From Escherichia coli O157:H7 (GTDB lineage: Bacteria; Pseudomonadota; Gammaproteobacteria; Enterobacterales; Enterobacteriaceae): a DNA stretch of 64,000 nt. Location of the stretch: assembly GCF_013167455.1 (NCBI RefSeq), contig NZ_CP038328.1; one strand, given 5' to 3'. Positions within the stretch are counted from its first letter, which is position 1. Every line of letters starts with the position of its first letter. A program made the position numbers. Positions 51,001 to 54,000 of this stretch are shown here, piece by piece.

Positions 51001-54000
51001 GTAAAGCCTTTCCTCAGCCGGCAGGTGTTGCGTTACCAGTCCGGGAAGCGGAAACACAGGAAGAAATTAAAACTGAAAGTGTGGCGGTCACAGTGCAGTC
51101 ACAGTCGTCGTTCATCAGAAAGCATCCGGATGGTCTGATTTTACCATCGCTGCATGTGGCTAACCGCGAGCTGCGCCGGGCAAAAGGTCAGGTTCAGAAG
51201 TGGGAGCGCTTATGCGCCGCGCTGCGGGAAATTAATAAGCATCGTGATGTCATACAGAAAATAACGACAGGAGATAACGGGTAATTTTTACAGCAGGGTG
51301 ATGATATGAAAATCAGATATCATGATTTCGGCCCCGTGTCACATATGCTTATTTCAAGTACGGTGCTGGAAACAAGAAAACATAATCACATACTGGATAT
51401 GCTGCGTCTTGCTGACCCGTATCTGGTAATAAACACCAGTGGAATTTTCTTTCTGAGAAGCACTGTGTCAGGAAAAACATCGCATGTGCTTCGGGCATAT
51501 AAAACAGCAGTGCGGGAGGAAGGAGAATGAGCGAGATTAACTATCAGGAGCTGCGTGTTGAGCTGGGAGCAGCAAAAAAACGCATAGAAGAGCTGGAGGC
51601 TAATCGTGTGGTGCTTGAGGTGGAAAATGAGAGGTTGAAACACGCAATGGCCGTAGCCCTTGAGCATATATCCGTCACAGATGCAGGACAGGCAGGTGTC
51701 GCTGCAATGATTATCTATGATGCCATGTACCACAGTGAAAAAACTGACCCCTACGCTTTTCTGGCAGAATTGCGGGCGCAGGGTGTGGAGATGGTGCGCG
51801 AACATCCAGCAATCAAACTTTGCTCTTTGACGCACATATGTGACGAGTTAGTCGCAGAGCTTCGCAAAGGAGGCAACAAGTGAGTAAAACGAATCCGGGC
51901 TGGGCAAGGCCACTTATGGCGAAAAAACATCATTATTTTGCTGAAGGTGAAATAACAAGTATTTGCGGTGGGTGGATGTATTTTGGCAATGAGCGTGAGC
52001 CGGATACATTCGAAAGTCCAGATGATTGTAAAAAGTGTCGTAGAAAATTAAATAAGGGGGGTAAATGAGCGTAATTAAAGAAATGCCAGTGGAACGTAAT
52101 GAATATGGCTGCTGGACGCATCCTGAATATGAAAAATTCTGTGATGGTCGGGAATATATTTCAACGGAAGAGTTTAACGCCTGGATGGAGAAAAATAATC
52201 TTCAGTGGGCTATCCGTAGTATGGATGAAGATGATTTTAATCTGGACGCAGATGGCCCTGATATTTCAGCATGGGAACCTGAGCGACCAGAAGGTGAGGG
52301 ATGGTTTATCGGTTCGATACATGACACCGAAGATGGTCCTGTTTGTGTATGGCTGAGAAATAAGGCCGAAGCATAAAGGCTATAAACCAACAACTAAACA
52401 CTGAAAATTTAAATCAGAAATGATTTTTATTAAATCCTTAACCGGAGGGATTCCTGCACCCTCAGAACATCAGGAGACCGCCCGAAAGGGCGGTAGTGAA
52501 AAATGACTGAATTAACCAAAGAATGGCTACAGAACACGATTACCGGAATTGAGTCATCACGGGATGAAATACCGTTCGGACTCGATGAAGATCAAAACAA
52601 CATGCTTACCGCATTAAAAATTGCACTGGCATCACTGGCATCAGTATCGGATGAACGGGCAGCCTATGAATTATTTATGGAGAAGCGTTTCGGGGAATCT
52701 GTAGATCGCCGCAGAGCAAAAAATGGCGATAGAGAATACATGGCATGGGATATGGCGCTTGGCTGGATTATCTGGTGTCACCGCGCCGCCATGCTTCAGG
52801 CTGGAAACTTTCGGGAAAATAAGGGTTCGTCAACCAATAATTTTCGGATAATCTCGGAAACGTCAACCAACTCTCCGGCAATCCCTGATGAGGTGTTGTC
52901 CGCAATCCTGAAGGTCGCCAGGCTTCGTGCAGATTTCGATGCTTCTGAAGTGGACAGGCGAGGTATCGGTAGTTGTCTGGATGAGGCCGAGCAAGAACTT
53001 ATCGTTACCATTAACGAATACGCCAGTCAGATCGCAGTAGAAGCGACACAGGGGGAGAACCAATGAGCCGGCCAGATGCATTTGCAGGCGTTGCTATAGC
53101 TATTGCTTTTCTAGTATATGTTATTTGTCGGTGGGGGTAAAAACGTTCGCCGGGATTCACACCAAGGGAGGGAATATGTCGGATGATATTTCACTGGTAA
53201 TGGAAGGCGCTCTGGCTGTTATTGCTGTTGTGGGTGTTTACTGCCTGGTTGTGTTTTTGATGGAGCGCCTGGGGAACTGAATTCATTCCGTATGGGAATT
53301 CCCATATCGGGCAAAACGGTTTGCTGTAAAGCGAGAGTTAAGTAGAATTGCTGCGGGTGCTTGAGGCTGTCTGCCTCGGGCATGCCACCGTAAGGCAGAC
53401 AGAGAAAAGCCCCAGTTAACATTACGCGTCCTGCAAGACGCTTAACATTAATCTGAGGCCCAATCTATGCTTCACAAACGTAGGTTAGCCTCTTACGCGC
53501 CGAAAGGCAAGGAGAAGCAGGTTATGAAGCAGCAAAAGGCGATGTTAATCGCCCTGATCGTCATCTGTTTAACCGTCATAGTGACGGCACTGGTAACGAG
53601 GAAAGACCTCTGCGAGGTACGAATCCGAACCGGCCAGACGGAGGTCGCTGTCTTCACAGCTTACGAACCTGAGGAGTAAGAGACCAGGCGGGGGAGAAAT
53701 CCCTCGCCACCGCTGATGTGTCAGGCATCCTCAACGCACCCGCACTTAACCCGCTTCGGCGGGTTTTGTTTTTTCTGGTCGTTCTGGTTTACAATCCATC
53801 CGTCAGCCTGAACAACTGGCACCTGCTGCGCCAGCAGAGAAAACAGATGGCGCACGATACCAAATTTTACAATTCGGATAACTCTGCCGCCCCTGCCAGC
53901 AGGCACGGGCGGCGTTCTCATGCATTCAAATCTGACTGGTATCAGCACGACCCCTGCACCGAAGAACAGGCTGAATGGCTGATTCAGTGTTACCGCAGGC

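Follow-up and report, generated by a model that had tools for sequence, protein, structure and literature searches.

Why does a prophage carry the gene for a second short, hydrophobic peptide directly in front of a hok toxin gene, and is that peptide another toxin? The question is raised by a lambdoid prophage of Escherichia coli O157:H7, in the segment between the replication genes and Q, which lies in a stretch of 64,000 nucleotides (nt) of contig NZ_CP038328.1 (below, the window). An earlier note on this DNA had described, at 53176-53679, a Hok-like peptide inside a mok-like overlapping frame, and upstream of it an independent open reading frame (ORF) of 34 amino acids (aa), here called ORF-B, which was proposed to encode either a second small membrane toxin or a phage membrane protein. 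These features were found where they had been placed (Table 1). We consider it probable that the segment consists of three separable units: a canonical hok/mok/sok locus, an autonomous gene (ORF-B) for an inner-membrane peptide which is not a type I toxin, and a further small reading frame, ORF-A.

To judge whether ORF-B is a gene, about 200 loci related to that of the window (type I loci) were collected from IMG/VR, and were reduced to 31 haplotypes of the ORF-A-to-ORF-B stretch. ORF-B was intact in all 31, with one allele of 32 aa and one GTG start, and an (A/G)GGAGGG Shine-Dalgarno sequence was retained in every haplotype. In a subset of 20 haplotypes, 8 of the 11 variable sites fell at codon position 3, and the pairwise Nei-Gojobori ratio of non-synonymous to synonymous substitution (dN/dS) was 0.11-0.29 within type I. 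The comparison of synonymous and non-synonymous changes that the earlier note had proposed as a check was thus passed. Its description of an independent ORF with one transmembrane (TM) segment and a near-consensus Shine-Dalgarno sequence, about 250 bp upstream, was also borne out: ORF-B is a conserved gene of its own with a GGAGG core, and its stop codon is separated from the hok ATG by 244 nt. The best 18-residue hydropathy window of the peptide scored 2.89, which indicates a single-TM peptide. The accessibility of the Shine-Dalgarno sequence was 0.29 by partition-function folding, against a background of 0.39, an uninformative value.

Translation of a near-identical copy has been published. 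XECs145 of strain Sakai is listed as a translated novel intergenic gene by ribosome profiling (RIBOseq) in S2 Table of Huecker et al. (2017, PMC5597208). According to that source, XECs145 in lysogeny broth (LB) had 346.1 reads per kilobase per million (RPKM) in the translatome and 79.1 RPKM in the transcriptome, with a ribosome coverage value of 4.35 and a coverage of 0.99, while the ribosome coverage value in brain heart infusion (BHI) was 1.14; an inner-membrane location and one TM segment were predicted for the product. XECs145 belongs to the same family as ORF-B, but was annotated there with a 20-aa N-terminal extension from an upstream codon, and its last 34 residues differ from ORF-B at two positions (D for E30 and A for V8). 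The conserved Shine-Dalgarno sequence and ATG argue for the 34-aa form rather than the extended one. The parts of PMC5597208 that deal with XECs145 report no function, family analysis or link to hok. When peptide strings and accessions were searched in the main texts of the literature there was no match, and the publication on ORF-B surfaced only in supplementary tables. We concluded that ORF-B is a real gene, which is intact, under purifying selection and, by the published data on the near-identical copy, translated.

The type I ORF-B was present in 673 of 5,426 complete E. coli genomes (12%), with a median of 2 copies and up to 5. It is annotated only as "hypothetical" or "uncharacterized". 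The earlier note had called the ORF invisible to an ORF track of at least 60 aa; it is missed only by such a track, since NCBI annotates it as WP_001278460.1. A phmmer search for distant homologues against 1.84 billion representatives returned only six close relatives.

A shorter relative, ORF-B', was found in phages Evi, Tritos and mEp460. It encodes 29 aa (MLVLKCALAIAAVMAIYCLAVVLMDRLSD) from a GTG start behind a GGAGG Shine-Dalgarno sequence, and loci with this relative are called type III. ORF-B' was found in 109 IMG/VR contigs and in 1,723 of the 5,426 E. coli genomes (~32%), and no feature was annotated at ORF-B' among the 40 RefSeq matches listed. It usually follows variable cargo, for example AbiH. 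Between type I ORF-B and the divergent type III ORF-B', dN/dS was 0.39-0.42. The family (29-34 aa) has the core A-L-A-[VI]-x-A-V-x-[GA]-[VI]-Y-C-L-x-V-V-x-L-[MI]-[DE]-R, and the aligned columns of both branches share a small-residue face, an invariant Tyr-Cys pair and the L-[MI]-[DE]-R motif.

Both branches are strongly linked to hok, which follows ORF-B in 167 of 175 type I loci and ORF-B' in 80 of 97 type III loci. In two independent arrangements the stop codon of the ORF-B family member stands close to the hok -35 element, 7 nt before it in type III and ~40 nt in type I. Furthermore, a putative ORF-B' promoter, TTGAA[TG]-17-CATATT, has conserved hexamers and a diverged spacer (in L206, TTGAAT at 1232-1237 and CATATT at 1255-1260), and no terminator was found between it and hok, so a joint transcript is likely in type III. 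Such an arrangement would suit an accessory of the Hok system, that is, a membrane partner that tunes insertion, oligomerisation or timing of Hok in an antiholin-like manner, or a protein-level immunity factor. We regard this explanation as unlikely, because the linkage is broken from both sides. In 341 genomes ORF-B' was intact without hok, with a DUF1971 gene in the place of hok, and the comparison of a hok-linked with a hok-less copy gave a dN/dS of 0.10, so ORF-B' is under purifying selection also in the hok-less arrangement. The exceptions among type I loci likewise retained an intact ORF-B where hok was disrupted by an insertion sequence (IS), truncated, absent or replaced. In the other direction, hok-like DNA was found at 10,837 places in 4,721 genomes, about threefold the ~3,400 places of the ORF-B family; about 70% of the hok places had no ORF-B-family neighbour, including the validated hokW locus, which has only ORF-A. 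Moreover, the same Hok, WP_000813254.1, is paired both with ORF-B and with the 50%-divergent ORF-B', which means that there is no co-variation. Since ORF-B is kept without hok and hok is commoner than the ORF-B family, ORF-B is linked to hok yet separable in both directions. We concluded that ORF-B is not an obligate part of hok/sok but an autonomous gene.

ORF-B could still be a second membrane-damaging peptide: a toxin akin to those of type I, or a helper which, like a holin, adds to the damage by Hok in the lytic cycle. The type I toxins Ldr, TisB, ShoB, Ibs, Zor and DinQ are hydrophobic single helices of ~20-35 aa, and ORF-B resembles them in being short, very hydrophobic and with a single TM segment. 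A membrane toxin is adjacent in ~88% of the sampled ORF-B-family loci, and hokW aids lysis upon induction (Takada et al. 2021, PMC8621323). ORF-B differs from those type I toxins, however, in its strong ribosome-binding site, its translation in growing cells and the lack of a detected antisense or divergent small RNA (sRNA) partner. Consensus scans, whose sensitivity is limited, found no minus-strand promoter with a terminator opposite ORF-B, neither in the window nor in type III. An antisense promoter-like site does overlap the start codon, but it falls on the AATATG start context, type III lacks it, and such sites are no commoner than in shuffled sequence. Type I toxins are expected to be translationally off in growing cells, whereas in the published RIBOseq entry for the near-identical XECs145 the ribosome coverage value is high (4.35) in cultures that were growing and had not been induced. 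There are up to five copies of ORF-B per genome, and the gene lies outside the lysis cassette, between the replication genes and DUF968/RusA/Q. ORF-B had no PADLOC or toxin-family match, and no sequence similarity to the NCBIfam toxin models. On these grounds a toxic or holin-like role is improbable; of the two possibilities raised in the earlier note, the second small membrane toxin is disfavoured by the lack of a convincing antisense partner, the strong ribosome-binding site, the translation of the near-identical copy without induction and the copy number, and the phage membrane protein is the better reading.

Our preferred reading of ORF-B is hence a small, independent protein of the inner membrane rather than a second toxin. 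This reading rests on selection where hok is absent, on the lack of a convincing antisense partner and on translation in growing cultures, and ORF-B has the attributes of small single-pass membrane proteins: a length of 50 aa or less, one predicted TM helix and a conserved, translated ORF. The conserved small-residue face, the Tyr-Cys pair and the L-[MI]-[DE]-R motif suggest specific helix packing. The peptide would insert in the inner membrane and act via helix-helix contacts, with the small-residue face and the Tyr-Cys pair binding either a second ORF-B molecule or, in the manner of YoaI and MgrB, a larger membrane protein. By analogy with these proteins, ORF-B may bind or modulate a larger membrane protein; we infer its membrane insertion and its non-toxicity together with this mode of action. 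The K-12 protein YoaI (PMC11429745) is as long as ORF-B (34 aa) and shares with it an acidic N-terminus, a single TM segment and the motif [IM]-E-R-x-G at the C-terminus, but it is encoded by a core-genome gene and ORF-B by a prophage gene. Homology of the two was considered and rejected: BLASTP gave no alignment, and a shuffle p of ~0.004 was inflated by the shared hydrophobic-block layout. YoaI was kept as an analogy.

Several observations weigh against this interpretation. The family libraries give no functional hint for ORF-B or ORF-A, and ORF-B matched no Pfam, NCBIfam, PHROG or PADLOC family. The published RIBOseq signal of XECs145 comes from a multi-copy prophage sequence, and part of it could come from a spontaneously induced subpopulation. 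hok lies within ~250 nt in ~88% of the sampled ORF-B-family loci with enough downstream sequence, an adjacency that leaves room for a functional tie of ORF-B to Hok. Small-residue (glycine-zipper-like) faces occur in pore-forming peptides too. The net charge of the N-terminal flank is -3 in type I and +1 in type III, so the orientation of ORF-B in the membrane cannot be inferred from it. Finally, the weak antisense promoter-like site that overlaps the ORF-B start codon matches 9 of 12 positions in the majority haplotype; the window copy, with its hexamers counted by hand, matches 8 of 12. No terminator follows the site.

The peptide itself might also be irrelevant. ORF-B ends just before the hok promoter, and in type I a conserved hairpin, formed by a palindrome, follows it. 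Control of Hok depends on the exact 5' end of the mRNA, and translation or RNA of ORF-B, together with the palindrome, might insulate the hok promoter and this 5' end from read-through. We consider this very unlikely. Purifying selection acts at the amino-acid level (dN/dS 0.1-0.4) in type I, type III and hok-less copies, the Y-C and L-M-[DE]-R-L motifs are conserved, and ORF-B' persists where there is no hok to insulate. The independent inner-membrane protein accounts for ORF-B better.

Downstream of ORF-B, 53355-53775 is a complete, canonical hok/mok/sok type I toxin-antitoxin locus, a system which is already known biology. The hok/mok locus with a structured leader, as recognized in the earlier note, was confirmed. 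The Rfam model RF01794 (sok) matched 53355-53529 over its full length (model positions 1-157) with 114.9 bits (E = 2e-26), where the gathering score is 59. The Hok peptide matched Pfam PF01848 (HOK_GEF) with E = 1.3e-23 over model positions 1-42 of 42, and PHROG_251 "MokW-like host killing" with E = 3e-33; with the NCBIfam Hok subfamily model it scored 48.5 bits, under the 73-bit cutoff. The full-length hok mRNA folded with z = -5.8, and none of 100 shuffles folded as well; in both the minimum-free-energy and the centroid fold, tac (53355-53366) pairs with fbi (53729-53741). A compensatory exchange of G:C to A:U was found in the 5' hairpin of hok (53368-53408, compared with L205, L206 and L204): CUGUCUGCC/GGCAGACAG versus CUAUCUGCC/GGCAGAUAG.

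The earlier note had also suggested a search for a Sok-like antisense RNA, and it turned up a minus-strand promoter, TTGCCT-17-TAACCT, and a predicted RNA; its in silico fold (z = -6.05) leaves a 5' tail of 10 nt free, which is followed by a long hairpin and a U tail. The mok ATG at 53467 falls within the region complementary to the predicted 5' tail of Sok. When the window was aligned with the Sp5-type hokW locus, Evi and PPompW, the mean column identity was 89%. The hok promoter region was alignable across four locus types, and a promoter scan found the homologous promoter TTGGCG-17-TAGAAT in Evi. The aligned sokW locus has the same sok -10 element, which was replaced there with primers YO-421/YO-422 to make a "pro-less" sokW mutant (Takada et al. 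2021, PMC8621323).

The window locus is closely paralogous to hokW-sokW of Sakai prophage 5 (Sp5) and phage 933W, which has been validated by experiment (PMC8621323). The two share a 51-aa Hok, the in-frame mok extension, the promoter, the leader, the Sok -10, the hairpin and fbi, as well as their setting in an O157 lambdoid prophage with ORF-A upstream, directly so at hokW. The window differs in its 3' end, which carries an intrinsic terminator, in the insertion of ORF-B and the palindrome between ORF-A and the hok promoter, and in its position between the replication genes and Q, whereas hokW lies next to an EaA-like gene. Toxicity of hokW and its counteraction by SokW, the appearance of HokW after mitomycin C in a RecA-dependent manner, and a doubling of Sp5 release by the hokW-sokW locus were reported in that study (PMC8621323). 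These activities, toxicity, Sok effect and a role in phage release, were demonstrated for hokW only, and toxicity of Hok and its neutralisation by Sok would be expected here by likeness to this paralogue. The stable hok mRNA would be held inert through the 5'-3' (tac/fbi) pairing; translation of Hok would rely on mok, and the short antisense Sok would pair at the mok start region. If the locus works like the near-identical hokW-sokW of Sp5, induction of the prophage would lead to loss of Sok and synthesis of Hok, which may aid lysis and phage release.

The same architecture of tac/fbi pairing, coupling through mok, an unstable short Sok and a Hok/Gef toxin is known from hok/sok (parB) of plasmid R1 and from the chromosomal hok loci of K-12, described by Gerdes and colleagues. 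mok is in frame with hok in chromosomal mokC, as in the window, and in another frame in R1. In the prophage the role is probably assistance of lysis or defence, not plasmid maintenance as for R1. To our knowledge, no upstream small-peptide genes have been described for the R1 or K-12 hok loci.

Two kinds of hok disruption were observed among the related loci. An IS of ~1.1 kb lies inside the hok Shine-Dalgarno sequence, at the same point in three haplotypes (L010 at ~2961; L173 and L177 on the minus strand), and its 346-aa IS481-like transposase scored 221.6 bits against a cutoff of 224. It resembles the IS-inactivated hok loci of K-12. In locus L114 (minus strand), which carries the most divergent ORF-A/ORF-B pair found, ~179 nt of the hok leader are kept after ORF-B, followed by an ORF with motifs of a C5 cytosine methyltransferase.

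Table 1. Coordinates of the features in the ORF-A to hok segment and of related copies elsewhere (window positions, except where a locus handle is given)
Feature	Position	Strand	Remarks
Upstream 187-aa hypothetical gene	52503..53066	+	stop overlaps ORF-A start (ATGA); context, outside the module
ORF-A	53063..53140	+	25-aa single-TM peptide, MSRPDAFAGVAIAIAFLVYVICRWG; ATGA overlap with upstream stop
ORF-A homologues	L205 1118-1201; L208-L213 901-981		pattern M-x-W-P-[ED]-A-F...Y-S-I-C-R-W-G
Direct repeat	53135-53145 and 53309-53318		copies in the window
ORF-B Shine-Dalgarno	53164..53172	+	AAGGGAGGG; GGAGG core 4 nt from ATG
ORF-B	53176..53280	+	34 aa, ATG to TGA, MSDDISLVMEGALAVIAVVGVYCLVVFLMERLGN; RefSeq WP_001278460.1
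ORF-B'	L206 1298-1387 (phage Evi); also L207; L323/L324 ~3109-3198		29-aa GTG-start ORF
Palindrome	53288..53310		CCG-TATGGGAATTCCCATATCGG; between ORF-B and hok promoter
Palindrome, other copies	L204 1523-1544; L325 340-430
hok promoter	53321..53348	+	TTGCTG, 16-nt spacer, TAGAAT; read from sequence
Full-length hok mRNA	53355..53775	+	start from Rfam model; end is the intrinsic terminator
Predicted Sok antisense RNA	53402..53476	-	~75 nt, ends approximate; fold
mok-type ORF	53467..53679	+	70 aa, in-frame N-terminal extension of Hok; ATG 53467
sok promoter	53482..53510	-	-35 TTGCCT (53510 to 53505), 17-nt spacer, -10 TAACCT (53487 to 53482); read from sequence
hok	53524..53679	+	51-aa Hok/Gef toxin; RefSeq HokD, WP_000813254.1
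Terminator stem	53748-53765	+	followed by a T run

The third unit, ORF-A, starts at the stop codon of the gene upstream of it and ends shortly before ORF-B. Relatives of ORF-A were found by tblastn in 92 phage records, which include Stx phages, VT1-Sakai, the virulent rV5-like phage Av-05 and a P1-like phage. All eight of the other homologues compared have exactly 27 codons; the type I copies differ by an in-frame 6-nt indel, and ORF-A was disrupted in 2 of the 31 haplotypes. Among the homologues nucleotide identity was 63-79%, the proportion of synonymous differences (pS) was 0.34-0.84 and that of non-synonymous differences (pN) 0.13-0.28, and the other frames contained stops; against the divergent copy of L114, dN/dS was ~0.13. 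In six further records the ATG of ORF-A overlapped the stop of an EaA-, Ea22-, DUF551-type or hypothetical gene in every case, and hok was annotated downstream in none of the six, suggesting that ORF-A travels with its upstream gene and not with hok. Also in the related loci, the gene before ORF-A was swapped (DUF551, EaA, Ea22) and ORF-A was retained. ORF-A was unannotated in each record inspected. In Sp5/933W-type phages it stands directly upstream of hokW, and primer YO-432 of Takada et al. (PMC8621323) begins at its ATG, so the published hokW-sokW clone carried ORF-A silently. From these comparisons of sequence, ORF-A appears as a member of a phage small-ORF family, with 27 aa in all other homologues compared.

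Two further searches on ORF-A gave little. In a scan of species-representative genomes with an alignment of the fused protein, of which the patterns came from ORF-A and the linker and did not cover ORF-B, FLVYVICR was absent from the representative genomes of other species; the only hit, in the Verrucomicrobiales metagenome-assembled genome L083, covered 17 residues at 71% identity to the TM segment of ORF-A and is probably a chance hydrophobic match. A candidate antisense promoter opposite ORF-A (53141 to 53113) was rejected, as it coincides with conserved Val-Tyr codons and is, by eye, weaker or absent in the L114 and Sp5 copies; sites of this kind were also no commoner than in shuffled sequence.

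The closeness of ORF-A and ORF-B raises the question whether they are halves of one ~74-aa protein with two TM segments, joined by a -1 frameshift at GGGGG-TAA (53133-53140) or split by mutation. If the P-site tRNA-Gly slipped by -1 on the G5 run ahead of the stop, reading would continue in the ORF-B frame, and three fused forms of 74 aa (P0005, P0008 and P0009) exist in public protein sets. Among the ~200 type I loci, however, not one was fused, and the G run was broken in 4 of the 31 haplotypes. The spacer between the two ORFs was 34 nt in L095 and L114 and 35 nt otherwise, so that their frame relation is not conserved. In addition, ORF-B is equipped with a strong Shine-Dalgarno sequence of its own, many phages carry ORF-A by itself, and ORF-B' is likewise found alone. 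The fusion was therefore rejected on the nucleotide survey, the broken G runs and the variable spacer, and we give it almost no credence. Because no fusion was found in the ~200 loci, the 74-aa forms most likely arose through a single-base indel, or through an assembly error, in the G5 run.

The palindrome is located between ORF-B and the hok promoter. In most relatives it is a perfect 22-mer, CGATATGGGAATTCCCATATCG, and the window copy is one A short. Its RNA forms a 9-bp hairpin of about -14.5 kcal/mol without a U tract. It was unchanged in L114 despite diverged flanks, and in PPompW phages it stands beside hok without a complete ORF-A or ORF-B. Exact copies were also found in unrelated Dhillonvirus phages, where they lie within tandem repeats of 56 bp immediately 3' of the helicase/primase gene. 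Among the matches listed for the palindrome were also 18 records of Aeromonas phages and a Proteus phage with a near-exact copy. In the majority type I haplotype, an 11-nt direct repeat, GGGTAAAAACG, flanks the unit of spacer, ORF-B and palindrome (L005 at 2575-2590 and ~2760-2775), while Sp5 has a single copy of the repeat, which joins the ORF-A stop to the hok promoter. This pattern suggests either an insertion of ~170 bp with target duplication or a deletion by slipped recombination.

The 281 nt from 53040 to 53320, which take in the last part of the upstream gene, both small ORFs and the palindrome, were 100% identical to many E. coli O157:H7 chromosomes. In the RefSeq annotation of an identical copy the order is DnaT-like O, P, DUF1627, several small hypotheticals, the 187-aa hypothetical, WP_001278460.1 (34 aa), hokD, a 92-aa hypothetical, DUF968, RusA, Q and tRNA-Ile/Arg/Arg. 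The 187-aa gene matched PHROG_14306 and PHROG_660, both listed as of unknown function, and no Pfam family. Downstream of Q, at 56445-56691, are the three tRNA genes (Ile, Arg and Arg in RefSeq), as in Stx-type lambdoid prophages. Weak, sub-threshold Rfam hits to the prophage sRNAs isrK and isrJ were seen at 53688-53769, in the 3' untranslated region of hok, and at 56243-56327, between Q and the tRNA genes. For prophages of this kind, the sRNAs PasA and PasC have been reported in the vicinity of RusA, TerB and DUF1627 genes (bioRxiv 10.64898/2026.05.13.724894).

Part of this was known before. The hok/sok locus is textbook biology, and the 34-aa gene was already annotated, with published translation evidence, so the novelty is modest. 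Beyond the earlier note, the analysis adds ORF-A, the relative ORF-B' and the palindrome, and also the fact that ORF-B had been annotated and published as XECs145. As a bolder and quite unlikely proposal, ORF-B/ORF-B' and ORF-A would be the founders of two unrecognised families of phage micro-membrane proteins, and the ORF-B family would be a protein-level modulator of Hok (antiholin-like or immunity), which sets, with the palindrome, the timing of permeabilisation by Hok after induction. If this were true, a third, proteinaceous layer would be added to the RNA-only control of hok/sok.

The small membrane proteins of the ORF-B family, of its unannotated 29-aa relative and of the ORF-A family are uncharacterised. 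The ORF-B family is present in up to ~40% of sequenced E. coli: type I, which is annotated, in 12% of the genomes, and type III, which starts with GTG and lacks annotation, in 32%. The ORF-A and ORF-B families are concrete additions to the catalogue of phage micro-proteins, and they reveal gaps in genome annotation.

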